From Ruminococcus sp. (GTDB taxonomy: Bacteria; Bacillota; Clostridia; Oscillospirales; Acutalibacteraceae): DNA of 64,000 bases. This document shows positions 11,633 to 59,565 of this stretch, piece after piece. The notes beneath the pieces are model-generated. The model saw only the letters and a program-made list of their open reading frames with translations, was not told the origin of the DNA and ran no database searches. Each line of letters starts with the position of its first letter. Positions within the stretch are counted from its first letter, which is position 1. The translations under genes were made by a program, and so were the position numbers. The stretch is from contig JAZNVW010000016.1 of assembly GCA_045593025.1 (NCBI GenBank), positions 44,537 to 108,536 on the forward strand, written 5' to 3'.

Positions 11633-11645
11633 AGGAGCTGATAGT

Positions 11646-11843
11646 ATGTTACAATGGCTCAGTGCAAATATAGGCACTATTGCAGTATGTGCCGTATTGA
11701 TAACGATTATTACTGCAATCATCATTTGTCTTATCAGAAATAAAAAACAAGGCAAAAACTCCTGCAATTGCGGTTGCGGATGCTCAGGCTGTGCTATGAA
11801 GGACACTTGTCACCCTCAGGCAAACAAGCCTTCTGAAAACTAA
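11646..11843 (+). CDS. FeoB-associated Cys-rich membrane protein
   Basis: The ATG at 11646 follows AGGAG. One TM helix is followed by CNCGCGCSGC, as in the small Cys-rich proteins found downstream of feoB in Firmicutes. Confidence 0.75.
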   Translation: MLQWLSANIGTIAVCAVLITIITAIIICLIRNKKQGKNSCNCGCGCSGCAMKDTCHPQANKPSEN

Positions 11844-38646: not shown

Positions 38647-40266
38647 TTATGTTAGAAACTGCTCATAGGATGAGTCCATAAGAATTTCTATCTTATAACC
38701 CTTCCCCACTGTAATCTCTTTGAAGAGTCTACAGATTATCATTTTCTTTCTCTCAAGTGATGCTGTGTCAAATTCATCAGCCCAGCTAACGAACTCCTCG
38801 TAGTAGACATCGATGTTTTTCAGTTCAACTTCAGTATTCCTGAGTTTGCTCTGTTTCTCAGATATCTTTCTCGCATTTTCTGTTATCTTGGCTTTTGTAT
38901 TCTCAATTGCCATAGATAACACATCGGGAGTAAACTTGCTGTCACCTATCAAGGCATTTGCGATTTCTTCTGTAAGTTCACCGAGTTTTCTTTTCAGAGT
39001 TTCGGATTCCTTTTCGAGCTTCTTAATCTCCTGCCTTATCTGTGATAACTGAGCTCTGAATTTCTTTTCGATTGCAGCATCCTTGGGAGTAGCTTTGATC
39101 CTCTCGAAACATTTGTGCAGGACTTCAATAACATAGTCATCAACTATCTGAGCTGAATATACAGACTGTCCGTCACATTCATTTCTTTTCATAGCTTTTC
39201 CTGAACATAAGTATCTGTATTTTCTTGTGCTGTTATGTACGACACCATCTTTTGTTCTGTATGTGTCCATACTACTGTTAGCACATAATCGTTGACCGCA
39301 ATGAGCACAGTAAATATTACCACCTATCATTGTTGAGGACTTTGACCTTTGACTCATTTGTGTTCTCTCATCGTTCTTGAGTTTTCTTTGATCAAGTATT
39401 CTCTGAGCCTGTTCAAACAATGAGTCGCTAATGATTTGCAGTTCTACGATTCGTTTGGATTTTACTCCGCCCCTTACATAGAAGCCACAGTATAGAGGAT
39501 TCTGTAAGATTCGCTTAATAGTATTTGACTGGAATTTAGAACCGTTATGTGTCCGTATTCCCATACTATTAATATACTCTGCCATAACATAAGAACCCAA
39601 GCCCTCTTTTACGGTCTTTTCGAATATCATTCTGACAATCTCCGCCTCATCGGGGTCGACCTCCAGTGTCATAAGTTCCTTTCCTTTTTTATTTACGACA
39701 CCGCTTTTTACAAGTCGATATCCGAAAGGAGCACATCCGCCTGTATAGAATCCATCTTCAACTAACTGATGGAGGCGAGTCTTTACACGCATTGATGTCT
39801 TTTGACTTTCACCGTTGGCCTGCCAGAATCTTATGTAGTTCATGAGCTTGTCAACATGGCTGTCCATTCTCTGTTCGCCTTCGTTGACACTCCATACTTC
39901 TATACCGTGCTGAATGAACCATTCAACAACGAACGGGGTTTCATTGTCGATTCGTCCTATTCTGTCAAACATAAACACGAGAAGTATATCGAACTCTTTG
40001 TTTTCCGCTGCAGTTTTCAATTCCTGAACAGCATCTCGGTCATTGGCTGATACTTTATATCCCGAAATGCCTTGTTCTTGGTATTCTTTCTTAATCACCC
40101 ATCCGGGGTGTTGAGCTGCAAATTCTCTGCAAGCCTGCCTCTGCATTGGAATGTCATTCTTATCAACCTGTCCTTTGGTTGATACTCTATAAAGACAGTT
40201 GACGATTTTTGTTTCTACAAGTGGCGGCACAAATGCCGGAAATACTGTCGGTACGGTTGAGCCCAT
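38647..40266 (-). CDS. large serine recombinase (resolvase/invertase catalytic domain + recombinase/Zn-ribbon + coiled-coil)
   Basis: 539 aa with the catalytic motif LYRVSTKGQ, then FDRIGR, the Cys cluster CAHCGQRL...C and a C-terminal coiled coil. RBS GAGGT lies upstream. Confidence 0.9.
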   Translation of the reverse strand: MGSTVPTVFPAFVPPLVETKIVNCLYRVSTKGQVDKNDIPMQRQACREFAAQHPGWVIKKEYQEQGISGYKVSANDRDAVQELKTAAENKEFDILLVFMFDRIGRIDNETPFVVEWFIQHGIEVWSVNEGEQRMDSHVDKLMNYIRFWQANGESQKTSMRVKTRLHQLVEDGFYTGGCAPFGYRLVKSGVVNKKGKELMTLEVDPDEAEIVRMIFEKTVKEGLGSYVMAEYINSMGIRTHNGSKFQSNTIKRILQNPLYCGFYVRGGVKSKRIVELQIISDSLFEQAQRILDQRKLKNDERTQMSQRSKSSTMIGGNIYCAHCGQRLCANSSMDTYRTKDGVVHNSTRKYRYLCSGKAMKRNECDGQSVYSAQIVDDYVIEVLHKCFERIKATPKDAAIEKKFRAQLSQIRQEIKKLEKESETLKRKLGELTEEIANALIGDSKFTPDVLSMAIENTKAKITENARKISEKQSKLRNTEVELKNIDVYYEEFVSWADEFDTASLERKKMIICRLFKEITVGKGYKIEILMDSSYEQFLT

Positions 40267-45267: not shown

Positions 45268-46791
45268 TTACTTAATCTTTGCTCCACACGCGAAACAATA
45301 TCCAGAGTTTCTTTTTACAACAGCTCCGCATAAAGGACAAGACTTCATCGATTCTATCGAAGTCCGATCTATCGGTTTCTTCTTATCCTCTGAAGTCGCC
45401 TTAATTACAATTGGTGCTTCTTGATGCTTGTGTGGTATATCTTGTTTTATCTTTACAGTTTTATAACATACACTACAATAACGCTGAGACTTCTGCATAA
45501 TTGCACCACAATATTCGCAGCATACCGTAACATTATTTTGACTACTCGTTGTTTTTATATCAACAACCACTTTATCCTCTACATCTGTTGAGTTATGAGA
45601 AACTTCATCAGTAACCATTGAAGTTTCTGTTTCTATGCTTGTTGAATCTATGTCATCAAGCATAACAACTGTAGTATCTTCTACTTCGGACTCTTCTATT
45701 AACACTGTTTCTTCGTTCTGCTCTGTTTCCTCTAGAAACAAAGTAGCATCCGAGTTATCGTCAGGATGAAGAGCAATCTCATCAGAATCATCGCAATTAA
45801 TTACTATATTTGATATTCTTTCTTTGTCGTTCCCATCTAAAACATCTTTAAGAACACCCACAAGCTCATGAACATTTTGATATCTGTCCTTATATGATAT
45901 AGATAAACCTTTCATGAGAACATTCTCTTGATCAATCGTTATATCAGCATTAAACTTAGATGGTTTTTCTAAGCAATCATCAAAAACTCTCTCCATTGCA
46001 TCGTCTGGTGTTACACCTGTTATACACCTATATATTGTCGCACAGAGAGCATAAATGTCAGTCCAAGGTCCTTGTATCCCCTTTGAACGATACTGTTCTT
46101 CCGGAGCGTAACCTGGTTTTAACATTATTGAAAGACTTCTTCTATCTTCAAAATTAACATCTCTAGCAGCACCGAAATCCATCAGCTTTAATGTACCATC
46201 TTTTAGCAACATAATATTATCTGGACTAATATCTCTATGTATTAACCCTCTATTATGCACCTTTCCAAGAGACTCTAATAATGGCAACATCTTACTGATA
46301 ATATCAGTATAATCAAACACTGAATTCTCTTTAAGATACTCTTTAAGTGTTATTCCATCCACAAACTCCATAACAATATATGCAGTATTATTAGCCTCAA
46401 AGTAATCTCGAACATCAACTATATTTTTATCACCAGAGAATTTCGCAAGCACTCTTGCCTCACTTAAGAATTTACTCTTTCCATTCATAAAATACTCTGA
46501 GTGCTTTGTTCCTGATATCGTTATATCAGAGGTTATTTCCCCATATCTATTCGCATAACCGCTCGGATAGAATTCTTTAACAGCTATTCGCATATCAAGA
46601 TTTAAATCTCTACCAATATATGTAATACCAAAGCCACCTTCACCAAGTGCTTTACCTACCAAATATCTATTATTTAGAATTGTTCCAGGCTTTAGGTGGT
46701 GAGGAGAAGTACTTTCTAAACCTAACTTTTTACAATTCTCGCATACATCTTCATTACACTTGTGCATACAATTGTAGCAATAATTGTCCAT
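45268..46791 (-). CDS. cytoplasmic Hanks-type Ser/Thr kinase flanked by zinc ribbons
   Basis: N-terminal CYNCMHKC..CENC. Kinase motifs are GEGGFGITY, AVKEF, HRDISPDNIML, DFGAA and GYAPEEQ. An acidic linker follows, then two C-terminal CxxC...CxxC ribbons. No TM helix. Confidence 0.9.
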   Translation of the reverse strand: MDNYCYNCMHKCNEDVCENCKKLGLESTSPHHLKPGTILNNRYLVGKALGEGGFGITYIGRDLNLDMRIAVKEFYPSGYANRYGEITSDITISGTKHSEYFMNGKSKFLSEARVLAKFSGDKNIVDVRDYFEANNTAYIVMEFVDGITLKEYLKENSVFDYTDIISKMLPLLESLGKVHNRGLIHRDISPDNIMLLKDGTLKLMDFGAARDVNFEDRRSLSIMLKPGYAPEEQYRSKGIQGPWTDIYALCATIYRCITGVTPDDAMERVFDDCLEKPSKFNADITIDQENVLMKGLSISYKDRYQNVHELVGVLKDVLDGNDKERISNIVINCDDSDEIALHPDDNSDATLFLEETEQNEETVLIEESEVEDTTVVMLDDIDSTSIETETSMVTDEVSHNSTDVEDKVVVDIKTTSSQNNVTVCCEYCGAIMQKSQRYCSVCYKTVKIKQDIPHKHQEAPIVIKATSEDKKKPIDRTSIESMKSCPLCGAVVKRNSGYCFACGAKIK

Positions 46792-46805: not shown

Positions 46806-47513
46806 TTAATTCACAAATAAAGCAATTGCCGAATGATTATCATTATTTTCAGGCATCACACGCTCTAACAAAGCTCTCATTTTCTTTAGCCAATCTTGCG
46901 AAGATTTCGAGCTGTTCAACAAACCAATCATTTCTTGTTCAGTAATATTTTCCCAGAAACCATCTGAACACAAAAGCAACGCATCACCTTGTTCCAGAGA
47001 GGAACTGGTCAAATCAACTTTAACCTTCTCTTTACTACCTAAAACTCGAATAAGTTTATTTCGATCCTTATGTCCCCTTATCTGCATTGCGTCAATTTCA
47101 CCCATCAAAACTGCCATTTGCGAGACACTATGATCCGTTGATTGAAATTTTATTGTGCCATTTCTAAAATGATACACCCTGGTATCCCCAACTGTCGCAA
47201 ACAAACAGTTATTTTCTTCTATCCATACGATAGAAATTGTTGTTTTCATTTTATTCTCTTGGTTTTGTTCTAAGATACTCATATTTGCTTTTTCGACAGA
47301 GTCTAAAAGCAACGATTCTGACAAAGGCATATTATGTAAGCAATTATTTATAGTTGTTGTAGCAAGTCTGGATGCAACTTCTCCCGAATCGTATCCACCT
47401 AGTCCATCTGCAACTATTGCCACCAACTGATTGCACCCTTCAATCAGACTCACAAAATCTTCATTATTTTTTCTACCGCCTACCGCTGAGTAGTATGATG
47501 CATCTATATTCAT
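46806..47513 (-). CDS. PP2C-family Ser/Thr phosphatase
   Basis: 235 aa with motifs GGRKNNEDF, VADGLGGYDSGEVAS, LLLCSDGFWE and DNHSAI. Confidence 0.9.
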   Translation of the reverse strand: MNIDASYYSAVGGRKNNEDFVSLIEGCNQLVAIVADGLGGYDSGEVASRLATTTINNCLHNMPLSESLLLDSVEKANMSILEQNQENKMKTTISIVWIEENNCLFATVGDTRVYHFRNGTIKFQSTDHSVSQMAVLMGEIDAMQIRGHKDRNKLIRVLGSKEKVKVDLTSSSLEQGDALLLCSDGFWENITEQEMIGLLNSSKSSQDWLKKMRALLERVMPENNDNHSAIALFVN

Positions 47514-47546: not shown

Positions 47547-48356
47547 TCATTTGTTTTTTATAAAAACAGCAACATTGCAATTGTACTTTTCAGAAAGTTC
47601 TCTTTCCATTTCTTCCGCTAACTCGCTTACATATTCATATTTGTCGTTTTCATAATCATCATTAGGAATATTACCATTTTCATCGTATTCAATACCATAT
47701 GAAATTTCAAATACCAAAGAATCGTTAAAAGCTCTCATTCTGTTTATGGCTTTATAATCATAGATAATCTCATAGACATCATCATTAGATGTGTCTAACT
47801 TAACAAAAATGATATTTTTCCATGTTTCCTCAACTATTGAAATAATGTCTTTAGTAATGGTTAATTGATTTTGATCATTTACTGATGAGAAAAACACCTC
47901 TAATTGCTCATCTGATAATCTTTCAATATAGGCATTATTTCTAATACTGATATTGCACCGCCCACAAGATCCAATTTTGCTGTACACTGAAACATCAACT
48001 TGAGGGAAATTGCTTGAATAATCATCAAGTTTCTTTTGAAAGTCGTCAATTGAAGCAATAGAATTAAGATAAAAATTCATAGTTGCTAAATATGCCGCCT
48101 GTATCTTTTGATATTTGCTTTCCTTAATTGTCTCAAAAACAACACCCTTCTTCTTTGCATGATCAATATCATGTCCCAAAGGATAAATGTTATTTGCCTC
48201 GTCTATATCCAACGGAAAAATTTGCAATGTACATATCACATTAGAACTCTCCTTTATACATCCTTTATTGACACTAAAAAATTCTACCATTACACCGAGA
48301 ACAAGAAATAAAATTATAAAACAAAAAACGGTTATTCTAAGTGTAATTCTATTCAT
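47547..48356 (-). CDS. hypothetical N-terminally anchored protein (candidate immunity/accessory protein)
   Basis: 269 aa with one N-terminal TM helix (ITVFCFIILFLVLGVMVEFF). Its start overlaps the stop of the upstream papain-like effector by 4 nt. No family recognised. Confidence 0.4.
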   Translation of the reverse strand: MNRITLRITVFCFIILFLVLGVMVEFFSVNKGCIKESSNVICTLQIFPLDIDEANNIYPLGHDIDHAKKKGVVFETIKESKYQKIQAAYLATMNFYLNSIASIDDFQKKLDDYSSNFPQVDVSVYSKIGSCGRCNISIRNNAYIERLSDEQLEVFFSSVNDQNQLTITKDIISIVEETWKNIIFVKLDTSNDDVYEIIYDYKAINRMRAFNDSLVFEISYGIEYDENGNIPNDDYENDKYEYVSELAEEMERELSEKYNCNVAVFIKNK

Positions 48357-49468
48357 GAGTTATACCTTGATTGCTGAAATTCAATTCTCATATTTTCATC
48401 GAAATCATCAGGATCAATGTAATACGCCCCCCCCCAAGACGAAACCTTATACATTTTTTTCCCATTAATTGTCGAAACACCTGTAATCACCATAGCATGA
48501 CCACCATCACGTGTGTCAACAAGATTTCCTTCATGATTACGAAGTCGCAAAGGACTAATTGCAACAACAATTTCGCCTTGTTCAGACAATTCTTCATAAT
48601 TATCGACTGTTACATCTAAATTAATTATATCAACTTTAATTTTTTTGACTTTTAAATAGTTTTCCCACCTTGTCTCACTGGTTCTTTTTGTTAATCCATA
48701 TGTTTCTCCATCAATTTCACCCTCAACACAATAAAAATCCAACATAACTAAATCATAATTTGGATAACCATTTTCATCGTACATTGAAAACCCAAAATCT
48801 TTTGCAAATAAGTCCTCTCGTCCAATATACTGACCAAAAATGGTATTAACCCAAGCCATATAATTACAGCCTTCACTATTCATTTCCGAAAGCAAATCAG
48901 CAATTCTCTCATCAGGTAATTCCGGAAAATATCTTCTTACAATACTTCGCAATTGATCTCTATCTCCGCGACCCCAACGTCTTGCAGCAGATCCCTGATT
49001 ACCTCCATAATGCAACCCATCATCATGAGTATATGATGGATTGATAAATCCGGTTAATATGTTCTCCAATTTAACCCAAACCGCATCAAAAGTCGTAATG
49101 TTATCTGTTGAAAACCCATTATTGTTTGGGTTGGCTATATTAGATAATATATGTATACACTTATGAAATTGTGTTATTGCTTGTAGTAGAGCATCAAATG
49201 CATTATTATAAGAGGAATCAATAATATTTACATTCGTAAAAATATTTTCAATATTTGACCGAGTGGTATTATTTTTATCAATTACTTTTCTATGATATTC
49301 ATTCACGTTACTTATGTAATTCTTTATATTTAATACTCCTATCCACGACTGAAAATCATACCATCTGTCTCCAAACCAATCAGTAAAATCACTAAGTTTC
49401 TCATTCTCAACTTCCGAAACCATTTGCAGTAATTCACCTTTTGATCTTTCCGAAAAATCCCTATACAT
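48353..49468 (-). CDS. putative T7SS effector: shared N-terminal domain + C-terminal papain-like cysteine peptidase
   Basis: The N-terminal ~115 aa are paralogous to ORF 49533..51065. The C-terminus has NSEGCNYMAW (Cys), DGGHAMVITG (His) and VSSWGG, the order and context seen in papain-fold peptidases. Confidence 0.5.
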   Translation of the reverse strand: MYRDFSERSKGELLQMVSEVENEKLSDFTDWFGDRWYDFQSWIGVLNIKNYISNVNEYHRKVIDKNNTTRSNIENIFTNVNIIDSSYNNAFDALLQAITQFHKCIHILSNIANPNNNGFSTDNITTFDAVWVKLENILTGFINPSYTHDDGLHYGGNQGSAARRWGRGDRDQLRSIVRRYFPELPDERIADLLSEMNSEGCNYMAWVNTIFGQYIGREDLFAKDFGFSMYDENGYPNYDLVMLDFYCVEGEIDGETYGLTKRTSETRWENYLKVKKIKVDIINLDVTVDNYEELSEQGEIVVAISPLRLRNHEGNLVDTRDGGHAMVITGVSTINGKKMYKVSSWGGAYYIDPDDFDENMRIEFQQSRYNS

Positions 49469-49532
49469 GGTTTTTCACATCCAAACATATAACTATTTCT
49501 TTGCCAACGCAACAATCGTCTTAAACGCAAGG

Positions 49533-51065
49533 TTAAATATTAAGCGTTAAATCCTCTAGTCGCTCAATTTCTTCCTCAATTTTTGCTATCATATCTCTCG
49601 TGCATTGTTTATCTTCTGAACTAGCAAAAATCGCACTCACGCTATCCAACGCATTTTCCATAACTGTAATAATTGCTTTGTATTCTTGTATTTTTGCTGC
49701 TTTCGCAAGTTCAAAATATGTTCTACATTGTTCTGCATCATAATTGGAATAATCCCCAGAGTTAACTTTATTTCGATAGTACTCATATTTCTCAACTAAT
49801 CCATAGGAGTATTGCTGTGTAGAATATACACTTCCAATATTGTCTGTAGTATCTGTTAGTCCAATTACCGAAGATGATATATCCTTTGTGTCAATAAACA
49901 AGTCCAACAAAGGCAAGGCTTTATCTATACCCTTATCAATACCCATTTGGGCAAGCTTTTCAATACCATCATGTGCTGCCGATATGTACTGATTGCGATA
50001 TTCCCACAACAAGGAATCCACAACCTTGTTTACAGTTTCGTTATCATATCCTCCATCTATTAACGCTTTTTTTATTGCTTCAAGATACTTCACATCTTCA
50101 GTATAATCATTAAATACTTTAGTAATCATTTGAGTAGAAATGTCATAAATATCAACTGCATCACTATAAGCCCCCAAAGTGCTTTCCACATCTTTGGTCA
50201 TACTTTGAATAAACTGTAAGTTTTCTGATTGACATAACCATTTTAAGTAATCTGACTCTGTTATATCTTTTATGTCAATCTCTAATATTTCTGCTATCTT
50301 TGCCTCAGTAATATCTTCACCCAAATCAAGTGTAAGTCCAATAATCTTCTCACCAATCTTAAATTCTTCTGGTTTTAGTGCTTTTGTGTATTCTTGGGTA
50401 AAATCGGAAGCAACATGCTTATTATCTAAAACTTGTGAAATCAACTCTAAGATACTCTTTTTCACAATTGTCTCATTAACATCATCACCAATATCAAACA
50501 ACAAGCTCGTCATATTCTCAATCCAGTTAGCTGTCCAACCAACAGCTATTGCATCTAAGTCAGTATTACGCGAGTCAATAAATATACCTGTAAAATCAAC
50601 ACCAAGCAATTTGGGGCATACTTCCTCTGTAGGTGCAGTAAAATACTCCATAGACTCAGTAAGGAGTTCGGATAATTCTGCCATGGAATCCGATATAAAC
50701 TCCCCTCTAAAACACCCATTTGACGGATTAACAAGTTGGCACAACTCTTCCATATATCGCTTAATTATGCCAAACTGTGTATTATTCTGCTGTAATATTG
50801 TAGAATATCTACCATCAAGATTAGTAACTGCATTAAATATTCTGCCTATAGTATCTTTTGTCGTGTTGTTCTTATCAATGACTTTTCTATGATACTCATT
50901 AACATTATCAATATAGTTTTTGATATTTAATACACCAATCCACGATTGAAAATCATACCACCTATCTCCAAACCAGTCAGTCAAATCATGGAGTTTCTCA
51001 TTTTCAACATCAGAAACCATTTGAAGCAATGTATTATAGGAATTCTCAGAAAAATCTCTATACAT
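49533..51065 (-). CDS. putative T7SS substrate/effector: shared N-terminal domain + long helical C-terminal region of unknown function
   Basis: 510 aa. The first ~80 aa are about 80% identical to ORF 48353..49468 (MYRDFSE..DWFGDRWYDFQSWIGVLNIKNYI.NVNEYHRKVIDKNNTT). There is no TM helix and no recognised catalytic motif. Confidence 0.5.
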   Translation of the reverse strand: MYRDFSENSYNTLLQMVSDVENEKLHDLTDWFGDRWYDFQSWIGVLNIKNYIDNVNEYHRKVIDKNNTTKDTIGRIFNAVTNLDGRYSTILQQNNTQFGIIKRYMEELCQLVNPSNGCFRGEFISDSMAELSELLTESMEYFTAPTEEVCPKLLGVDFTGIFIDSRNTDLDAIAVGWTANWIENMTSLLFDIGDDVNETIVKKSILELISQVLDNKHVASDFTQEYTKALKPEEFKIGEKIIGLTLDLGEDITEAKIAEILEIDIKDITESDYLKWLCQSENLQFIQSMTKDVESTLGAYSDAVDIYDISTQMITKVFNDYTEDVKYLEAIKKALIDGGYDNETVNKVVDSLLWEYRNQYISAAHDGIEKLAQMGIDKGIDKALPLLDLFIDTKDISSSVIGLTDTTDNIGSVYSTQQYSYGLVEKYEYYRNKVNSGDYSNYDAEQCRTYFELAKAAKIQEYKAIITVMENALDSVSAIFASSEDKQCTRDMIAKIEEEIERLEDLTLNI

Positions 51066-51088: not shown

Positions 51089-51358
51089 TTAACCATTCAC
51101 AATCTTGTCTGCGGCTTTGCTATCACTTGAAACATAGCTATCTCGTGTGTTTTGTAAAAACAGGATTGTATTCGACACAAGTTCTCCAAAACAATTATTT
51201 AGGGATTCATACATTGATGCAATCTCCTCTAATTTATTAACAGTTTTACCGCCACCAACAGTAACGGGTGGCGTAGTGCTTACTAAGTCACACCTTGTTT
51301 GCAAGCTTCTTAATCTTCCTATGGAATTATTTATTTCATCAATATTAATATTAATCAT
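51089..51358 (-). CDS. small helical T7SS-associated protein (DUF3130/TIGR04197-like, tentative)
   Basis: 89 aa with a helix, a Gly/Thr-rich turn (TTPPVTVGGGKT), then a second helix. It lies immediately upstream of the effector genes. Confidence 0.4.
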   Translation of the reverse strand: MININIDEINNSIGRLRSLQTRCDLVSTTPPVTVGGGKTVNKLEEIASMYESLNNCFGELVSNTILFLQNTRDSYVSSDSKAADKIVNG

Positions 51359-51378: not shown

Positions 51379-51666
51379 TTAAAATAAGAATTGATCTTCT
51401 ATATCAACACGCGTTAAAAATCCTTCTATTTCTCGTTTCGCATCTCTAGAAACAAGACCAATTTGACTTTTTAGCTGATTAACATATGAAATGTATGTAC
51501 TCAGTGCATTTGAAACTTCGCCGCTCATAATGGCTTTAGCTTTTACTTCTTCTAAAATTTCAACATAATCTACAATAAATGTATCAAGTTGTTCACCCTG
51601 TGACTCGAAATAGGCACCCATACTTCTACAATATTCATCATCAATAATAAGTTCGTTACTAGCCAT
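51379..51666 (-). CDS. small helical T7SS-associated protein
   Basis: The ATG at 51666 follows AAGGAGGGAG. 95 aa, predicted all-helical and acidic. Confidence 0.4.
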   Translation of the reverse strand: MASNELIIDDEYCRSMGAYFESQGEQLDTFIVDYVEILEEVKAKAIMSGEVSNALSTYISYVNQLKSQIGLVSRDAKREIEGFLTRVDIEDQFLF

Positions 51667-51683: not shown

Positions 51684-52268
51684 TTAAGTTGCATAGCGCA
51701 ATTGGTTTTCCCAATACACTTTACGTTGTCTGCGATAAGACAATTTTGAATTCGTATCATTGAGTTGACTATTACATGAGTTAATATCTCGTCTTGTCCT
51801 ATCTATTTGTCCATTTACAGAATTAATGCGATTATTCAAATCATCTATTTCTCTTTGTATAGATGAAATTTTATTATTAACCACATTAATTGCTGAAGTT
51901 AATCCATTATATGCATGCCTATATTCAGAACCTGATAACAACGACTGCATTCCATTAACATACGATGAAATAAACTTAAGGTTCAGTTGTCTAGAAAAGT
52001 GCACATTAAATCTGCTAATACGTCTAGATTGTCTATCAGCAAACTGTGTCTGTAAATTTTGATACTTACTTTTAAGATGACTTAATTCATCAATTTGATT
52101 TCTTAGTCCACTAATCTGATTCCTCAAACTATCAATTTGTGAATAGCACTGATTCAACTGAGAATTATAAGTATTAATTCTATCATTCAATCTACCAATA
52201 TCTCTTAAATATTGGTTAATTAAATTTTCGTTGTATCGAATATTATTACGAACCTCTTGCTTTGTCAT
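51684..52268 (-). CDS. coiled-coil protein (YwqH/DUF5082-like, tentative)
   Basis: 194 aa with N/Q/R/I-rich heptad repeats at both ends (LNDRINTYNSQLNQCYSQIDSLRNQISGLRNQIDEL; IQREIDDLNNRINSVNGQIDRTRRDINSCNSQL). Confidence 0.45.
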   Translation of the reverse strand: MTKQEVRNNIRYNENLINQYLRDIGRLNDRINTYNSQLNQCYSQIDSLRNQISGLRNQIDELSHLKSKYQNLQTQFADRQSRRISRFNVHFSRQLNLKFISSYVNGMQSLLSGSEYRHAYNGLTSAINVVNNKISSIQREIDDLNNRINSVNGQIDRTRRDINSCNSQLNDTNSKLSYRRQRKVYWENQLRYAT

Positions 52269-52411: not shown

Positions 52412-52720
52412 TTAACCCTTGCGTGTGAACTGACTATTGATATTACGATCAGTTTCTTCAAGGATTTTAGCGGTTTCTCTGAGGTTATGTGCGATTTCCT
52501 CGAATAACTCTACAGCATTTGTAAAGGTTTTAGTTTTTATCTCGTTATATCTACTTCTGTAGCCTTCCATTGCTGCACCTTCCCATTCACCTTCAAGTGT
52601 AACAAGAAGCCTGTCCATATTGCTGATTAAAGTTCTCATCTCTTCTGCACGTCTATCGACCTCACCAGCTCTTGTCCTCATCACTTCAGGTTTCATTCTG
52701 ATAGTACCAGAACCAGCCAT
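52412..52720 (-). CDS. esxA: WXG100-family secreted protein (EsxA-like)
   Basis: About 100-aa helical hairpin with a central W-E-G (LEGEWEGAAMEGY). The ATG at 52720 is 8 nt after AAGGAGG. It lies directly downstream of essC. Confidence 0.85.
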   Translation of the reverse strand: MAGSGTIRMKPEVMRTRAGEVDRRAEEMRTLISNMDRLLVTLEGEWEGAAMEGYRSRYNEIKTKTFTNAVELFEEIAHNLRETAKILEETDRNINSQFTRKG

Positions 52721-52780
52721 AATATTCACCTCCTTATAATTTATTCTATAGGAAATTAGTCTCCGACCAATTTTCTAACA

Positions 52781-55700
52781 TCAAGAATCGGGTTGTTCTT
52801 TTGCTTTTACCAACTTAAGTTTAACAACATTATTATCATGAATATAGTAAGCATCTCCAACCTCAAGGCGTTTTCGATTATTTCGTATATCTTCATACGG
52901 AACATCAAAGGGTTTCAGATTATCAAGATCCTCAAAGAACAAAAGATGTTGTTCCTGCTTAACAGTTCTTATAGGTTCCGGAGCATCATATGACACAGAA
53001 GAATTAGAATAATTCGAGAAGATAATAGCGACATTCATACCTTTAAAACGAGATACAATATCATTAAACATGTCTAGAATGCTATAATCTTCACTAATCT
53101 TTTTGGCTACATCATTGTTTTGAATTATCATCAAAAGCAATTCAGAATTACCATTAATGCTTCCATTCTCGATCAAAGTGTTATATCGTTCTGTTAAAAC
53201 GGAATGCCATTCCTGTATAATATCAGTAACCTTATCAACACCTAAAGAATATGTAGTTACTAACTTACTTTCTTTAAAGCACTCAAGTTTTCTAGTAACA
53301 TCATCAAACAATACAACTTTCGCAGGATTGGTTTCAATATTGGATTCCAGAACATCGAATAAATACGCTAAGAAGTTTTTATGACCAGTGTTCGCTTTAC
53401 CGCACAGTCCTATGATTCCTAACTGAGAAATGTCTAAATAATAAGGCTCAACATCTTGATAGGTTAAACCAACAGGAACTTTGTATCCTTCCGATTGTGC
53501 ATCGAACTCATATTTTATCGCATCCATTGTTAAAACTGTCGGAATATAAGGAATTTGTTTAGCTTTTATGCCAATATATTTATCATTAATATTAATAACA
53601 AACTCTTGCATTTGCTGAACTCGTGCATACTCTTTTTCACCTTCAAAAGCTAAGTAGGTTTGACACTCAAGGATTCTTTTATCGACCTCTAATATGCAAC
53701 GTCCAGGCACCTCATCGGGTTTTAATGTTACATGATCAAATAACGCAGAGTATTCTGATGTATCATTACAACACAAGGCCATCTTGTTAGCAAAGTTAGA
53801 TAAATATCTATATCCGATACCAGTTGTCTGAGAGTTTGTAACAATAGTAGATATACCCACCGATAATCCTTCTCTTAAAATATTCAACAAGCTGTCATCA
53901 TCTGCAAGATACAACTCGATAAGAGCTGTTAGATTATCAATCATTAAATATATATGAGGTAGGTCACTATATCCAGCTTCAACATACGAAGAATATGAAC
54001 TAACGCCTACAGAAACGAGTCTTTCTTTTCTCGTTAATATTTCCGAAAATAAAAGCTTAAACATATTCTTTAGCTTTTCATCATCAGAAGAGCACACAAC
54101 CCCACCAACATGATTTAAATTCTCAAAGTTTTTCAATACCATTGAACCAAAATCTAGAATATAAATGGTAGATTCTTTGGGAGACGATGTTGAGGCAATC
54201 GTTCTTATTAAACTTTGTAAAATATTAGTTTTACCATTTTGTGCTGATCCTAAAACAAATGTATTTTTATTATCAAAATCCATTGATGCTACTCCCTGAA
54301 TTTGGTTGTCCGGATCATCGTAAATACCCAGGCCTATCAAGCTATTTTTCTTCATATTGGCTTTTGAATATTCAATATGTTTTGGTAGTGATGGCAAACA
54401 AATATTAGGCAACCTACTTATACCTTTTACTCCACAATAGTTATGTACATACTCGACGATTGATTCTAACTGTGTAAAAACAGAACCAGATGTCTTTTTC
54501 TTCTTTTGAACATAAATCGGGGTTCGTTTTCCAGCCGCACTCACCTCAAATAATGCAAATTCTTTAATTTCGGCTTCTGCCATTTTTTCAGGAGCACCAC
54601 TATACGCAGACTGAAACAATTCGAACACCTCGTTGTTTCCCACCTGTAAATAAGCGCGACCAGGTTCCTTTATTTCCGCCGCCAATGGAGATTTAATAAC
54701 CTCATTACTATCCTCTTGGCTTTGAACTTTTAAACACAGTTTAAATTTAGAGTTACTCCAGATCTGTTCATCGACCTGACCAGATGGCTTCTGTGTTGCT
54801 AATATTAAGTGAACACCTAAACTTCGACCAATTCGTGCTGCTGATATCAACTCTTTCATAAACTCTGGTTGTTCAGCTTTAAGTTCAGCAAACTCATCTA
54901 CAATAAGTACTAAATGAGGGATTGGAACCGATACTTTTCCTGCTTTATACTTTTGTATATATTTATCTATATGGTTTACCTCAGCCTCAGCAAATAGCCT
55001 TTGTCTCTTCTGCAACTCAGCTTTTATAGATTTAAGAGAACGATCAATCTCTTTTCCATCAATATTTGTAATTGCGCCAAGCATATGTGGCAAATCCTTA
55101 AACTGATTGGCCATTCCACCGCCCTTAAAGTCAATAATCACAAATGCTACTTCGTAAGGATGGAATATGGTTGCAATTGACAATATGTAGGTTTGTAAAA
55201 TCTCGGACTTACCCGATCCAGTGGTACCTGCAACCAAACCATGAGGGCCATGTGCTTTATCATGCAAATCCAAAGAGATAATTCCTGTTTTTGTAACACC
55301 TATTGGTGCCGCCATAGACTGAAAAACTTTAGAATTTGCCCATCTTTGATCAAGGTTCAAATCGTCAACCATTAATATTCCAAACATTTCAAAAAGTGAA
55401 ATGTTTTTTGTAAGAGCACCCTCTAACGATATTTCCTCTGTAAATATTGGTGCTAATAAGTTTACGATTTTTTTTGCATCTTCATCGCTTATTCCATTAT
55501 AAGTAAAATCAACTGTATCGTCCTGATTATTAGAATTGACTAATCTGCCCTTATTATAAGAATCAACAAAAATCAACTGTGAGCATCCTTGCGGAATTTT
55601 GCTTTTTTCTTCCGCCATAAATACAAACGTCGCTGCAAGGTCTTTTAGTTTGTTTACATAGTTGGATAACGGATGTGTTTGAAAGCCACATTCATCATAG

Positions 55701-57295
55701 AAGAATACTATAATATGAGGCGCTTTATCAGCTTGCGAATTTTGTGAACGTTGTGTTAGTTCATTATACAAATAATCGAACGTACGACTCTTACTTTCAT
55801 CGTCAACAGCGATATTTCTATATGATGTTGCTTCGTTATATACATGAGGTAAAAATCTTAACCAACTAATCTTAGGAGCATTTTCTTTTGCAGCTACAAA
55901 GAACAATTGTACATCAGTATAATACTGGCGAGCACAAATATCGATTATTAGGTTCTTCATGATAGAAAAACGACAATCCATATTTCCAATTATACCAATT
56001 GCGTTACTTTCTCGAAACTCACAAACAACGGGTGCATTTTCTAATGCTGAAAATTCCTGAGACACCTGTTGTGGTATTAACTGTAAATCATCTTCAACTT
56101 CTAAGCATTCTTGTTTTTTGTATTCAACATCTCTAGATGGCGTAACGCTACCTAATCCCAATCGCACTTGCAGGAAATCATCATCAAATATTCGTCTATC
56201 AAACAAATCACTAGAATAATCTATGAATCTCGTATACTCCGTTGATATATCTAAATACATCTGTTCTAAAGCTTGTCTTTCTTCATCTCTATATTTAGAT
56301 ATATCCGAACGCTTTCTTTCTATATATTTATTGTATTTTTCTATTCTCTCTTCGTTTTGTTTTTTAAACTCAACCTTATTTTGAATCGCGGTCATAACAG
56401 CTGTTACAATTGCCATTCCTCCAGAAATAAGGCTAAACACCACCATAGTACCGCCCATAGAAGCCATCAAGCCAGACGCCACTAACATACCTAGTGATGG
56501 TAAAAGACTCATCAACAAATTAGATTTTGCTTTTTGCGGTTTTGGAGGCGGATCAAGAACCTCGATTTTATCCGTATTTAAGACTGTCCTAATTCTAGTA
56601 TTACGACTAAATTTCGGATAGTTATTAGGGTTCGGATAATCAGTATAGGATAGTCCGTTTACAAATAAGTCTCCTCTAATTTCTGTCCACAAAATGTCAT
56701 TCTTATAGTAAAAATTAAAATCAGATATTGAGAAAAAATCCCCGTTCTTCACTACGCATCCGCTTATAGCTCTTGAACCATTATAGTAAACACCATATGT
56801 CGCTTTCCTGATTTGCAAATCAAAGCCTTTTGAGGATTTTTGTAATTCTATAACATCATCTTTAACAAAAGCACTCTTAAGCTTCACCTGACAATAATCA
56901 TCTGTTCCTATTCTAATCGAAGAACAACCAACAAGACTAATCGCTCTTTCATACTTAATTTTGCTATTGTTAAAATCAATTAGAAATTCTATTGTGAAAG
57001 CATCTATATTCGATTCTACGTATCTAATCGTAAATAAATCCCCATGCTTTGGAGAAAGTGCCATAAGCTTTCTACTATCTCCTACTGAAAAATAAAAGCT
57101 ATCAGAACACAACAAAGTCCACTCATTATTCTTCTTAATAAAATTAAGTTCAATTGGTTCAAAGAACAAATCTCTGTGTAATCTAAAATCACAACCTACA
57201 CTTGTACCTAATTTCGCTTCATTTTTACCAATAGGCAACTCAAATTCTTTATATAAATTTTTGTTTGATATTATTATTTTATATCTGTACTCCAT
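52781..57295 (-). CDS. essC: type VII secretion FtsK/SpoIIIE-family ATPase EssC
   Basis: 1504 aa with N-terminal FHA-like repeats and two TM helices (LLMSLLPSLGMLVASGLMA.., VVFSLISGGMAIVTAVMTAI). Three P-loop domains are present: GTTGSGKSE with IVDEFAEL, GSAQNGKTN, and the degenerate GKANTGHKN. Confidence 0.95.
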   Translation of the reverse strand: MEYRYKIIISNKNLYKEFELPIGKNEAKLGTSVGCDFRLHRDLFFEPIELNFIKKNNEWTLLCSDSFYFSVGDSRKLMALSPKHGDLFTIRYVESNIDAFTIEFLIDFNNSKIKYERAISLVGCSSIRIGTDDYCQVKLKSAFVKDDVIELQKSSKGFDLQIRKATYGVYYNGSRAISGCVVKNGDFFSISDFNFYYKNDILWTEIRGDLFVNGLSYTDYPNPNNYPKFSRNTRIRTVLNTDKIEVLDPPPKPQKAKSNLLMSLLPSLGMLVASGLMASMGGTMVVFSLISGGMAIVTAVMTAIQNKVEFKKQNEERIEKYNKYIERKRSDISKYRDEERQALEQMYLDISTEYTRFIDYSSDLFDRRIFDDDFLQVRLGLGSVTPSRDVEYKKQECLEVEDDLQLIPQQVSQEFSALENAPVVCEFRESNAIGIIGNMDCRFSIMKNLIIDICARQYYTDVQLFFVAAKENAPKISWLRFLPHVYNEATSYRNIAVDDESKSRTFDYLYNELTQRSQNSQADKAPHIIVFFYDECGFQTHPLSNYVNKLKDLAATFVFMAEEKSKIPQGCSQLIFVDSYNKGRLVNSNNQDDTVDFTYNGISDEDAKKIVNLLAPIFTEEISLEGALTKNISLFEMFGILMVDDLNLDQRWANSKVFQSMAAPIGVTKTGIISLDLHDKAHGPHGLVAGTTGSGKSEILQTYILSIATIFHPYEVAFVIIDFKGGGMANQFKDLPHMLGAITNIDGKEIDRSLKSIKAELQKRQRLFAEAEVNHIDKYIQKYKAGKVSVPIPHLVLIVDEFAELKAEQPEFMKELISAARIGRSLGVHLILATQKPSGQVDEQIWSNSKFKLCLKVQSQEDSNEVIKSPLAAEIKEPGRAYLQVGNNEVFELFQSAYSGAPEKMAEAEIKEFALFEVSAAGKRTPIYVQKKKKTSGSVFTQLESIVEYVHNYCGVKGISRLPNICLPSLPKHIEYSKANMKKNSLIGLGIYDDPDNQIQGVASMDFDNKNTFVLGSAQNGKTNILQSLIRTIASTSSPKESTIYILDFGSMVLKNFENLNHVGGVVCSSDDEKLKNMFKLLFSEILTRKERLVSVGVSSYSSYVEAGYSDLPHIYLMIDNLTALIELYLADDDSLLNILREGLSVGISTIVTNSQTTGIGYRYLSNFANKMALCCNDTSEYSALFDHVTLKPDEVPGRCILEVDKRILECQTYLAFEGEKEYARVQQMQEFVININDKYIGIKAKQIPYIPTVLTMDAIKYEFDAQSEGYKVPVGLTYQDVEPYYLDISQLGIIGLCGKANTGHKNFLAYLFDVLESNIETNPAKVVLFDDVTRKLECFKESKLVTTYSLGVDKVTDIIQEWHSVLTERYNTLIENGSINGNSELLLMIIQNNDVAKKISEDYSILDMFNDIVSRFKGMNVAIIFSNYSNSSVSYDAPEPIRTVKQEQHLLFFEDLDNLKPFDVPYEDIRNNRKRLEVGDAYYIHDNNVVKLKLVKAKEQPDS

Positions 57296-57306
57296 AATAT
57301 CACCCC

Positions 57307-57561
57307 TTATTCCGTGTAATAAATAACACTTCCATTACGAATTCCATATTCCTTTAGCGTTTTGTTACCTCTAAGAAGTGCTATTGGATTTTCAGATTTC
57401 AAATAGCATTTCTTAATGTCTGTTGTATCGATATTCAGTCTATAAGCCGTATTAAGTCCAATCACCAACTCTGTTGCAGTTATATCAAGTGGCACTTCAA
57501 TATCAACACTGGTATTATTCTTAGCGTTATTAAAAATCACAATTGCTTTATCATTATTCAT
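57307..57561 (-). CDS. esaB: YukD/EsaB ubiquitin-like T7SS protein
   Basis: 84 aa: VDIEVPLDITATELVIGLNTAY...TLKEYGIRNGSVIY fits the beta-grasp YukD pattern. It lies directly upstream of essC. Confidence 0.8.
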   Translation of the reverse strand: MNNDKAIVIFNNAKNNTSVDIEVPLDITATELVIGLNTAYRLNIDTTDIKKCYLKSENPIALLRGNKTLKEYGIRNGSVIYYTE

Positions 57562-57572
57562 ATATATACCCC

Positions 57573-58631
57573 TTAAATAATCAAATAGGCAATTTTTTGT
57601 ATATCTTTATCGTTTGATAAATCGTTAATAGATATATCATCATAAGCGGAGTAGTGTCCTATATAATCAACAACACTGTATTTTTTATTAATCGCAGGAG
57701 AGATCAAATAATTAGGTGCATCATCAACAAAGTTATTACACACAAAAATAAACTTATCACTCGTAACCCCATTCAAATTCGATACTAGTAGATTTGTTGC
57801 TTTTACCGAATACTTGCTCTGTGAAGTAACAACAACAACTTTATCTGCTATATCAATCAAACGAACTTGTTCCTCATCAAATGCCGACTCTACATCAATT
57901 ACTATACAATCGTATTCACCGCTGTTTTTTGCAGAAACAGCAATGTTTTCATACACACTAAAATCTATGCCATAAGACATCAACGCCGTTTTAAAGGGTG
58001 GTAAATAGCTAAACTCTTCTTTTCTCACCACATGCTTGATTGCCGAGTATATATTAGTGTTTTCCATTGTCAATTTTGCATACACATCCGAAGCTGCAAT
58101 TGGCTCTTGATTCACAAGCAAAGACTGAAAACATTGCAGTCTTGCGGCATTTATATACAGAACTCTTTTATAATTCTTACTCAAATACGAACAAATACCA
58201 AGTGCAACAGTAGTTTTACCTACACCTCCGGAAGCCGAGCATACGAGTGCTATCTGCGTTTCCTTGTGTTCAACATCCTGCAATTCTAACGAGGATGAAC
58301 CTTTTCCGCTAATAACATTAAAAATCTCTTTAAGACTTGTATATTTATATATAAATGTTATATTTGATGGTTTTTCTATTTGCTGTGAAGGTTGTTCAGT
58401 CATAACAAAGATATTACCTATATTATGTAAACTAAGCGATGAAGAGTATAACTCTTCAGAAACAACCAAAATATCTACTTTTTGAGGAGCAGAAAAAACT
58501 TCATCAAAAAAAATCCTATCGGTTATTATTTCTAAATCAATATTATCATAATATTTTTCTATAAATCGTTGCTGCAAAGGTATTATGTACTTACTATCAG
58601 TATCAGCAATAATAATTCTTGGATTAACCAT
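57573..58631 (-). CDS. CpaE/TadZ-like protein: receiver-like N-domain + ParA/MinD-class ATPase
   Basis: The N-terminus (RIIIADTDSKYI...VDILVVSEELY) has a CheY-like topology. The Walker A is IALVCSASGGVGKTTVALG and the Walker B-like motif is CIVIDVES. Confidence 0.7.
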   Translation of the reverse strand: MVNPRIIIADTDSKYIIPLQQRFIEKYYDNIDLEIITDRIFFDEVFSAPQKVDILVVSEELYSSSLSLHNIGNIFVMTEQPSQQIEKPSNITFIYKYTSLKEIFNVISGKGSSSLELQDVEHKETQIALVCSASGGVGKTTVALGICSYLSKNYKRVLYINAARLQCFQSLLVNQEPIAASDVYAKLTMENTNIYSAIKHVVRKEEFSYLPPFKTALMSYGIDFSVYENIAVSAKNSGEYDCIVIDVESAFDEEQVRLIDIADKVVVVTSQSKYSVKATNLLVSNLNGVTSDKFIFVCNNFVDDAPNYLISPAINKKYSVVDYIGHYSAYDDISINDLSNDKDIQKIAYLII

Positions 58632-58647
58632 TGTTATTCACCCACTC

Positions 58648-59565
58648 TTATCCAATAATAACTTTAAACTCACTGTTGGCAAGTCGAACGATATCACCAT
58701 TTTTAATCAAAAAGATTTCACCTGACGACACTCTTTCTCCATTAATATAGGTTCCATTAACACTGCCTAAATCTGTAATACTATACCTACCGTTATGTTG
58801 CATTATTTTGCAATGTGAGCGACTTATCATTTTGTTATAAGGAACAACTCCATCTACAACGCCTTGCTTTTTACCTATAGTAAATTCATCTTTAGTAACA
58901 TATATTTCAAGAGGAAATGAAGGATTCAATGAAACTAACTTCATAACCATATTCTCTCTTACAACATCATCAGATTTATTGCCACCCTTAGAATCTGCAA
59001 AACCAGCAGTTTTTACTTTATTATAAAGATTTTCTAACGATATCAATCCATTTGACAAATCAGCAGCTAATTGAAAAGTCTGAGACGATGATAATGAAGG
59101 TATATTCTGAATAAGTTTTATCAAATTTGAGCGTAGTGTATTCTCAAATGAAGCAGTATCAACAAACAATCTTTTTGTTATAGGCAGATAAACCAATCCA
59201 ATTTTATAAGTTGCAGGATCAAAATATATTTGATTTAAGGAAAGATCTATGTTCTGACAAGATAAAAAACCATTACTTTTAACTGAAATTATGTCATCAA
59301 GCAAATTCTTTACAATATTTAAAAAAGTTTTAGAATCTAAAGAATACAAAACACTTTCAAGAGACTTATATCCATCGGTTAAATAATAAAGCTGAACTTT
59401 CCCATTAAACAATGCTTTTACACATTTAATAAATGTGCCGTCCTCCTGGCTTTGCAGAACTTTATACTCAGTTAAAGAAAAAATGTCATTTTCATTTATC
59501 ACATAAGCAAAATTTTCACCACACACCATTTCGCTCAAGACACCATTTTCAACTAAAACATTCAC
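58648..59565 (-). CDS. FHA-domain protein with an uncharacterised ~190-aa N-terminal domain
   Basis: The C-terminus (FTIGKK...ISRSHCKIMQHNGRYSITDLGSVNGTYINGERV) is a canonical FHA domain with the R/S/H/N core residues. The N-domain is not recognised, and there is no TM helix. Confidence 0.85.
   Translation of the reverse strand: MNVLVENGVLSEMVCGENFAYVINENDIFSLTEYKVLQSQEDGTFIKCVKALFNGKVQLYYLTDGYKSLESVLYSLDSKTFLNIVKNLLDDIISVKSNGFLSCQNIDLSLNQIYFDPATYKIGLVYLPITKRLFVDTASFENTLRSNLIKLIQNIPSLSSSQTFQLAADLSNGLISLENLYNKVKTAGFADSKGGNKSDDVVRENMVMKLVSLNPSFPLEIYVTKDEFTIGKKQGVVDGVVPYNKMISRSHCKIMQHNGRYSITDLGSVNGTYINGERVSSGEIFLIKNGDIVRLANSEFKVIIG

Follow-up and report, generated by a model that had tools for sequence, protein, structure and literature searches.

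A 64,000-nucleotide stretch of contig JAZNVW010000016.1 from Ruminococcus sp. (hereafter, the window, meaning the whole stretch that was analysed) contains, next to the genes of a T7SSf-type type VII secretion system (T7SS), two adjacent genes whose products, effectors A and B, share a helical N-terminal domain of ca. 130 residues. We consider it likely, with a probability of roughly 0.75, that A and B are T7SSf substrates and that the shared domain is an export-targeting module with the role that the LXG domain has in the T7SSb subtype. The domain is most likely an unannotated LXG-like targeting family that is new in sequence, and a variant of a known export tag rather than a new mechanism. 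The T7SSf subtype and the Lap families, to which the partner proteins belong, are already known; the domain family itself is new. The two effectors and their domains are positioned as follows:

49533..51065, minus strand: effector A, 510 amino acids (aa), shared N-terminal domain followed by an acidic C-terminal region of ~375 aa (from the list of open reading frames, ORFs)
50661..51065, minus strand: shared N-terminal domain of A, residues 1 to ~135 (BLASTP of A against B, family profile and AlphaFold2 (AF2) model)
48353..49468, minus strand: effector B, 371 aa, shared N-terminal domain followed by a predicted papain-like Cys/His peptidase domain
49064..49468, minus strand: shared N-terminal domain of B, residues 1 to ~135 (family-profile hmmsearch)

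The first-pass annotation, which was made from the DNA letters and a list of ORFs, had described both ORFs, and they are found on the minus strand at exactly the coordinates it gave. It had estimated ca. 80% identity over the first ~80 residues of the two proteins; the actual value is slightly higher, 87% across the first 70 residues, and the likeness declines between residues ~90 and ~140. BLASTP comparison of A with B returned a single significant segment (residues 1-142, 58% identity, E 2e-43) and no further one beyond it, which agrees with the earlier description of the C-termini as unrelated. In hmmsearch, the domain of B matches the family profile over residues 1-126 with 180.8 bits. A profile search revealed neither further copies of the domain beyond those of A and B nor a canonical Bacillus-type LXG domain in the window. 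In A, the domain contains the motifs MxRDFS, TDWxGD, [W/L]xG (positions 42-44) and YHKKVIDKNNxT, as well as P114. The AF2 monomer model consists of helices 7-22, 28-43, 55-112 and 121-140, with a mean predicted local distance difference test (pLDDT) score of 78, although the score falls to 50-60 over residues 21-70.

We searched 1.84 billion cluster representatives (clusters at 50% identity) exhaustively with the domain profile using HMMER. The search retrieved 799 matches at E≤1e-3, 464 at E≤1e-10 and 102 at E≤1e-30. With few exceptions, the best 150 hits match over residues 1 to ~130 of proteins that are 260-1690 aa long. Word-indexed homologue searches, with the domain alone or with a 95-sequence alignment, returned 13-17 short fragments only, falsely suggesting that the domain is rare. 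Neither Pfam nor NCBIfam has a model that matches A, B or the N-terminus of either. Thus, the domain is a large, widespread family without a model in Pfam or NCBIfam. In RefSeq, its members are labelled "hypothetical protein" in Clostridium sartagoforme (WP_136008272.1) and Roseburia amylophila (WP_262624220.1), and a form with RHS repeats is labelled "DUF6531 domain-containing protein" (WP_262624216.1; its 90% cluster has 2885 members).

When the post-domain regions of 150 sampled members were clustered, at least 19 unrelated C-terminal classes were obtained. The constant N-terminal domain with a variable payload, which had been recognised from A and B as the pattern of polymorphic toxins, is therefore seen across the sampled members of a family of 799 clusters. 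Fusions to other toxin C-termini, a search for which the first-pass annotation had recommended, do exist: among 100 full-length members, Pfam recognises an Mbeg1-like lipase in four, and also RHS/DUF6531/YD-shell, glycine zipper and Lipase_3 C-termini.

Several architectures in the family stand out. Giant RHS/DUF6531 proteins of 1040-1690 aa carry the domain at the N-terminus (L040:10001-14920, L041:9980-14980, L042:10001-15067 and L043:10001-13126, where L numbers denote the loci of our survey), and the Roseburia amylophila RHS form is common in gut metagenomes, given its 2885-sequence cluster at 90% identity. In other proteins, an Mbeg1-like lipase precedes the domain, which then occupies residues ~290-420 (P0025, P0026, P0038, P0043, P0108; L010:9020-11791); weaker lipase cases in the same loci have a distant copy of the domain (23-28% identity) near the C-terminus (L021:17649-19367, L027:10676-12391, L033:14604-16388 and L025:6496-8190). 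These lipase-first members recall the 'reverse' lipase toxins TslA and TslM of Staphylococcus aureus. Many ORFs end just past the domain (58-145 aa) or run on in another frame or protein, for example L001:10001-10372 (GCA_009741525.1), L002:7758-8024, L006:13655-13828, P0011 and P0013, and one short domain ORF is fused to a VanZ-like segment. Such ORFs could result from frameshifts in the assemblies, or they could be pseudogenes or relics of an exchange of cassettes at the boundary of the domain.

Three small genes directly precede the gene of A and encode the helical proteins that had been noted upstream of the effectors and that are indeed present there:

51684..52268, minus strand: Lap4-like partner, a 194-aa coiled coil (Pfam YwqH-like, E 1.1e-6)
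51379..51666, minus strand: third small helical partner, 95 aa from an ATG codon (in the ORF list it starts at TTG 51714, 111 aa)
51089..51358, minus strand: Lap3-like partner, 89 aa (Pfam DUF5344, E 3.6e-5)

Member-by-member Pfam scans assign the family of the 194-aa protein to YwqH-like/DUF5082 (30 members match, best E 1.1e-34) and that of the 89-aa protein to DUF5344 (26 members match, best E 1.8e-10). Proteins of the Lap4 and Lap3 families are required for the export of the LXG toxin TelA of Streptococcus intermedius and have been co-crystallised with its LXG domain (PDB 8GMH; PMC10801868). The Lap3-like proteins of our loci carry, near the C-terminus, a motif of the YxxxD/E type, S-Y-x-x-[SA]-D-x-K-A-A, in which the Asp is present in 36 and the Tyr in 22 of 38 members. 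The 95-aa partner belongs to no known family, but in ~40 loci its gene is retained between those of the Lap4-like and Lap3-like proteins; since its homologues begin at the equivalent codon, the ATG at 51666 is probably its true start. About 41 of 44 members of its family share the C-terminal tail D-x-x-D-x-[YF]-L-[FY]-COOH, which we regard as a candidate EssC-docking element. Alignment of the 95-aa family with the WXG100 family of the same loci by hhalign gave a probability of 44% over 75 columns.

The domain is tightly linked to T7SS genes. In all three exact-protein contexts, metagenomic or genomic, the genes of EssC, WXG100 and small proteins (one of them DUF5344) are followed by that of the domain. 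Scanning of one genome per GTDB species yielded 41 loci, and 44 loci were compared overall. Forty of the 41 GTDB loci come from Clostridia (Lachnospiraceae, Acutalibacteraceae, Oscillospiraceae, Ruminococcaceae, Clostridium, Roseburia and Mediterraneibacter), and the remaining one is an 8.5-kb contig binned as Gastranaerophilales. With the window proteins used as queries in tblastn and phmmer, the order 194-aa protein, 95-aa protein, 89-aa protein, domain was recovered in ~40 of the 44 loci, and EssC together with YukD, an AAA_31 ATPase and an FHA protein was located upstream of the domain in 30 of them. In most cases, the three small genes come right behind EssC and WXG100 of a T7SSf-type cluster. 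Twenty-nine loci have 8 kb or more of sequence upstream, and EssC was found in 23 of these. The linkage to EssC, which the first-pass annotation had singled out for checking, is therefore strong, and the survey did not show the domain mostly in genomes without T7SS genes, the distribution that the annotation had named as speaking against targeting to a T7SS.

In the window itself, everything from ~45 kb to the end is encoded on the minus strand and makes up a single type VII secretion cluster with the gene order TsfJ, TsfV, TsfB, EssC, WXG100, the three small genes, A, B, a 269-aa protein, a PP2C phosphatase and a Ser/Thr kinase. Its secretion components are the following:

58648-59565, minus strand: TsfJ, DUF6382 and FHA domains (Pfam)
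57573-58631, minus strand: TsfV, AAA_31 ATPase (Pfam)
57307-57561, minus strand: TsfB, YukD-like (Pfam)
52781..57295, minus strand: TsfC, EssC-type FtsK/SpoIIIE ATPase (Pfam FtsK_SpoIIIE, E 6.6e-50)
52412..52729, minus strand: TsfA/EsxA, WXG100 protein (Pfam WXG100, E 8.5e-15; TIGR03930, E 3.8e-16)
46806..47513, minus strand: TsfF, PP2C phosphatase (Pfam PP2C_2, E 6.6e-15)

The T7SSf of Clostridia has been defined by the WXG100 protein TsfA, the YukD-like TsfB, the EssC homologue TsfC, the PPM phosphatase TsfF, TsfJ with DUF6382 and FHA domains, and the AAA+/TadZ-like ATPase TsfV (PMC11217815). As can be seen, all six components are present in one cluster of the window. FHA domains are on record for EssC homologues; the Pfam scan detected none in the EssC of the window at E≤1e-3.

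Neither A nor B matches the Pfam LXG family (PF04740; gathering cut-off 26.5 bits, with 192.5 bits for the positive control, YokI of SPbeta), and none of 100 full-length family members matches it at E≤1e-3. With a permissive threshold, sub-threshold PF04740 matches were obtained for 11 of 95 isolated domains (best E 3.5e-4, 20.9 bits). These matches pair helix 60-112 of the domain with the last LXG helix (HMM positions 141-193) and not motif with motif, and a second LXG hidden Markov model (HMM) of our own aligns the domain in a different register. Moreover, the unrelated helical families AbiH, ANIS5 and RecG_N produce as many weak matches to the domains or more. Since the alignment is limited to the last helix and its register differs between the HMMs, we rejected the weak matches as proof of homology; the mismatch in register, together with the equally frequent matches to unrelated families, makes them look like similarity of helical composition.

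In profile-profile comparison, hhalign gave a probability of 0.3% for the 95-sequence domain alignment against an LXG alignment that is narrow, consisting of 26 sequences from Bacillus only and built from homologues of SPbeta YokI. Control comparisons showed that LXG aligns with WXG100 with a probability of just 0.8% and that the Bacillus LXG profile misses the LXG chain of TelA in PDB. Because of the narrow profile and the outcome of these controls, the negative LXG tests are weak evidence; low sequence conservation is a known property of LXG domains (PMC10801868). As for WXG100 (PF06013), there was no Pfam match, and hhalign against the WXG100 proteins of the loci gave 4%; agreement is confined to the WxG motif and where it lies. 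Searches of PDB sequences with two domain profiles and a B profile produced chance helical matches only. Foldseek comparison of the monomer domain model with PDB returned nothing at E<3; such a result says little about an elongated helical subunit, because the geometry of a monomer model is unreliable for a protein that would belong to an obligate complex.

The domain resembles LXG in other respects. Position 42 is occupied by W in 68, L in 14 and F in 5 of the 95 sequences, and position 44 by G in 84. The [W/L]xG motif ends helix 2 (residues 28-43; 25-43 in a second AF2 model) and is followed by a loop, in a region modelled with low confidence; the LxG of TelA (Leu41) and the WxG of WXG100 proteins occupy a comparable position in a turn (PMC10801868). 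The term 'LXG-like' is already used for domains that are recognised by structure and partners yet missed by Pfam, such as that of TslA (PMC10730906). The domain is N-terminal in nearly all of the best 150 hits, all-helical in the AF2 model, placed ahead of variable C-termini and encoded 3' of DUF5082 and DUF5344 genes. The statement of the first-pass annotation that the domain does not resemble LXG or WXG N-termini was therefore too strong: it stands for the Pfam and NCBIfam models and for the hhalign probability of 0.3%, but not for the [W/L]xG motif at 42-44 or the Lap3/Lap4 partner genes. Of the proposed new T7SS targeting domain, what remains is a sequence family that is new and unannotated, used by T7SSf-type systems, accompanied by known Lap families and better described as LXG-like than as a novel sort of targeting domain.

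A closely related alternative is that the domain is a highly divergent LXG member by descent, in which case the only novelty would be that the PF04740 and NCBI 'T7SS effector LXG polymorphic toxin' models miss it, while its mode of action would be the one proposed in our main reading. We give this somewhat less than an even chance. The gene order matches that of the canonical LXG loci ywqH-ywqI-ywqJ and lapA4/lapA3-telA, where DUF5082 and DUF5344 likewise precede the toxin, and the partners found here are genuine members of these Pfam families (PMC10801868); the [L/W]xG motif lies near residue 42, in a turn; 11 of the 95 domains do show weak PF04740 matches; and, with a poorly conserved LXG family and a Bacillus profile that misses TelA, the negative sequence tests count for little. 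On the other hand, the hhalign probability is very low, the weak matches stay at or below 20.9 bits against the cut-off of 26.5, involve the wrong helix, are inconsistent in register and are equalled or outnumbered by those of AbiH, ANIS5 and RecG_N. In addition, the domain is ~130 and not ~200 aa long, and there is a third obligatory partner gene.

More doubtful is the opposite possibility, that the domain is not a diverged LXG but evolved independently as a T7SSf-specific module, with a signal composed of four proteins in which the DxxDxYLF tail of the 95-aa partner docks on the TsfC ATPase. If true, it would represent a distinct solution to substrate recognition among type VII systems, and the MxRDFS...YHKKVIDKNNxT signature would serve to catalogue hundreds of toxins, so far uncharacterised, from Lachnospiraceae, Oscillospiraceae and Roseburia of the gut.

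It is improbable that the domain is not a secretion signal at all but a module for chaperone or immunity docking, for membrane insertion and entry into target cells, or for regulation, with export specified elsewhere. The YHKKVIDKNNxT motif (residues 58-69) is unusually invariant for a helical T7SS signal, which would be compatible with a fixed partner or a catalytic-like role, and a few members carry the domain internally, behind a lipase domain. However, nearly every member has the domain at its N-terminus, the unrelated payloads joined to it number at least 19, and it is found in strict synteny with Lap3/Lap4 family genes and EssC; besides, T7SS substrates whose helical targeting domain is reversed or internal, such as TslA, are known (PMC10730906).

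The DNA encoding the shared part of A and B is 78% identical over the first 210 nucleotides (nt), and 89 codons compared contain 32 synonymous and 22 non-synonymous differences, which points to an old duplication under purifying selection and speaks against recent copying or a fault of the assembly. The resemblance could be read as a local accident of this one genome, brought about by recent tandem duplication or gene conversion and without wider meaning. In favour of it, the first 70 residues of A and B are closer to each other (87%) than to proteins with the same payload elsewhere (59-73% for A-type and 41-73% for B-type proteins); it is refuted by the synonymous differences, the 799 clusters and the 41 species-representative genomes.

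Several observations weigh against our assignment of A and B as T7SSf substrates with an LXG-like targeting domain. No significant similarity to LXG, WXG100 or solved structures was detected by HMMER, hhalign or Foldseek. With ~130 aa and four predicted helices, the domain is shorter than the LXG domain of TelA, which has ~220 aa, nine helices and a beta hairpin, and the AF2 pLDDT is just 40-60 at residues 21-70, the most conserved part of the domain. In 6 of the 29 loci with a long upstream flank (at least 8 kb), no EssC is seen nearby; two of the six (L029 and L044) are from metagenome-assembled genomes that have an EssC cluster on another contig (L015 and L007, respectively). Finally, no immunity-like gene adjoins that of A in the window or those of its counterparts at L004:10001-11533 and L008:9977-11635. 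A might therefore be something other than an antibacterial toxin; alternatively, its immunity gene may be located elsewhere.

The following course of events would account for the export of A and B by the T7SSf; we infer complex formation, signal recognition and export from the domain, its family, the motifs and the synteny of the loci. In the cytoplasm, the domain would form a helical bundle with the Lap4-like DUF5082 coiled coil, the 95-aa protein and the Lap3-like DUF5344 protein. The bundle would present a composite signal, to which the domain would contribute its [W/L]xG turn, the Lap3-like protein its YxxxD/E-type motif and the 95-aa protein its DxxDxYLF tail. This signal would be read by the EssC ATPase, and the complex would leave the cell with the C-terminal payload attached. 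A single set of partners would serve both A and B, which would account for an identity of 87% over their first 70 residues in spite of many silent differences in the DNA, and would fit the greater likeness of the two in this part to each other than to same-payload proteins elsewhere.

Among known systems, the closest parallel is provided by LXG toxins (TelA and TelB of S. intermedius, YwqH-YwqI-YwqJ of B. subtilis, structure 8GMH). In both cases, an all-helical N-terminal domain is combined with variable toxins, DUF5082 and DUF5344 genes lie directly ahead, EssC and WXG100 genes are beside the locus and an immunity gene follows the toxin. Also common to both are a hydrophobic-x-Gly motif in a turn near residue 42 and a Lap3-like partner with an acidic C-terminal motif. 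In contrast to LXG, the domain described here has no significant similarity to PF04740, is ~130 rather than ~200-220 aa long and has motifs of its own (MxRDFS, TDWxGD and YHKKVIDKNNxT). Furthermore, the Lap4-like and Lap3-like genes are separated here by a conserved third partner gene, the motif of the Lap3-like protein reads S-Y-x-x-S-D and not NKxxDD, and the host system is T7SSf and not T7SSb.

Another parallel is with the LXG-like proteins of Staphylococcus aureus, namely the reverse lipases TslA and TslM, EsaD with EsxB, EsxC and EsxD, and TspA, all known by their helices, turn motif and Lap-like partners. EsaD, too, has three partner proteins, and in TslA and TslM, as in P0025, P0026, P0038, P0043 and L010, the lipase precedes the helical domain. 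The staphylococcal domains form small T7SSb families, whereas ours is a large T7SSf family of Clostridia with sharp sequence motifs. With WXG100/ESAT-6 proteins and the bipartite WxG plus YxxxD/E signal of T7SSa (EsxAB, PE-PPE, EspB), the domain shares W-x-G at positions 42-44 between two helices, and the YxxxD/E-type motif is likewise located on a separate partner chain. Unlike WXG100, the domain has no Pfam match, reaches only 4% in hhalign, is fused to large payloads and has L or F in place of W in ~20% of members.

The paper that defined T7SSf (PMC11217815) lists candidate substrates ('hypothetical proteins'), WXG100-related Lap-like genes and immunity genes 3' of tsfC, the arrangement found here, but defines no N-terminal domain family of substrates, no motifs or size and no fixed three-gene module. 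In gut Clostridia, T7SSf has so far been described from gene neighbourhoods only, with the substrates annotated as hypothetical. The N-terminal signature together with the fixed three-gene partner module could allow annotators to find T7SSf effectors. Since most of the C-terminal payloads belong to no Pfam family, a domain family of at least 799 clusters at 50% identity is a source of antibacterial toxins and immunity proteins yet to be explored among the abundant gut commensals of humans and animals. The compact, sharply conserved domain is also well suited for studying how EssC reads a [W/L]xG turn, a YxxxD/E arm and the tail of a partner.

The payload of B and the gene that follows it are arranged as follows:

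48356..49021, minus strand: predicted papain-like peptidase domain of B, residues ~150-371, with YGGNQG, EGC201, GGH324 and SSWG (AF2, Foldseek)
47547..48356, minus strand: putative immunity protein for B, 269 aa, with an N-terminal membrane anchor and the bulk predicted outside the cytoplasm; its start overlaps the stop codon of B (ATGA)

B begins 64 nt 3' of A. Comparison of nine homologues of its C-terminal part showed that YGG-Q-G, EGC(201), NT and FG-PMY are invariant and GGH(324) and SSWG nearly so; Cys201 is invariant, and His324 is at least 90% conserved. AF2 predicts an alpha+beta domain with pLDDT 75-90 over residues 160-371, in which helix 204-214 follows Cys201 and strand 324-334 begins at His324. 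When this domain was compared with PDB by Foldseek, staphopains C, A and B were the first matches (E 3e-3 to 2e-2, probability 0.98-1.0), followed by cathepsin B; for the best staphopain match, TM(target) was 0.43, and sequence identity was 13-16%. No Pfam family covers the domain. With an alignment of seven sequences and marginal E-values, we assign the C-terminus of B with moderate confidence to the papain-like fold of clan CA, in agreement with the first-pass annotation, which had called it a papain-like peptidase. In common with staphopains A, B and C, it has a predicted alpha+beta fold with its Cys placed where a helix begins and its His where a strand begins; apart from the low identity, it differs from them in that it is joined to a putative T7SS targeting domain and accompanied by a probable immunity protein anchored in the membrane.

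Homologues of the 269-aa protein are encoded directly 3' of B-type toxins in two other loci (L029:11097-11870 and L044:11131-11934), where they have lipobox signal peptides (…VSGC and …VNGC, respectively); in the window protein, a hydrophobic N-terminal anchor is followed by …VNKGC, possibly a degenerate lipobox. The 269-aa protein is a probable immunity protein for B. Since it is membrane-anchored and faces outward, we infer that B probably acts on the outer face of the cytoplasmic membrane. The acidic C-terminal region of A (~375 aa) recurs in nine proteins of the same architecture, including those of L004 and L008, and matches no family in Pfam or NCBIfam.

Some further features of the loci may be mentioned. 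An 18-kb metagenomic contig (L002:102-18009) carries two tandem T7SS clusters, each with YukD, EssC and WXG100, and the effector module is present after the first of them only. Small genes of the DUF4176 type (MF..LPIGSVV...) are located 3' of some effectors (L001 ~11529-11819, L005:11533-11814 and L007:12228-12512), with none in the window; members of this family have reportedly been described recently as chaperones of T7SSb toxins.

In the window, the T7SSf cluster is flanked by Ser/Thr kinase genes on both sides. The kinase at 59713-63996 is of the PASTA type, with Big_3 and Listeria-Bacteroides repeats and an SH3 domain, and runs off the window; the kinase at 45268-46791 has a double zinc ribbon and adjoins the PP2C phosphatase. 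This arrangement differs from the description by Garrett et al. 2024, in which no kinase was genetically associated with T7SSf (PMC11217815).

From ~40 kb onward, the G+C content falls from 42-47% to 32-35%. At the boundary lies a large serine recombinase gene (38647-40266), and behind it come a helicase-like ORF of 817 aa and an M78-peptidase-like gene. Possibly, the T7SS cluster is located on or beside a horizontally acquired island.

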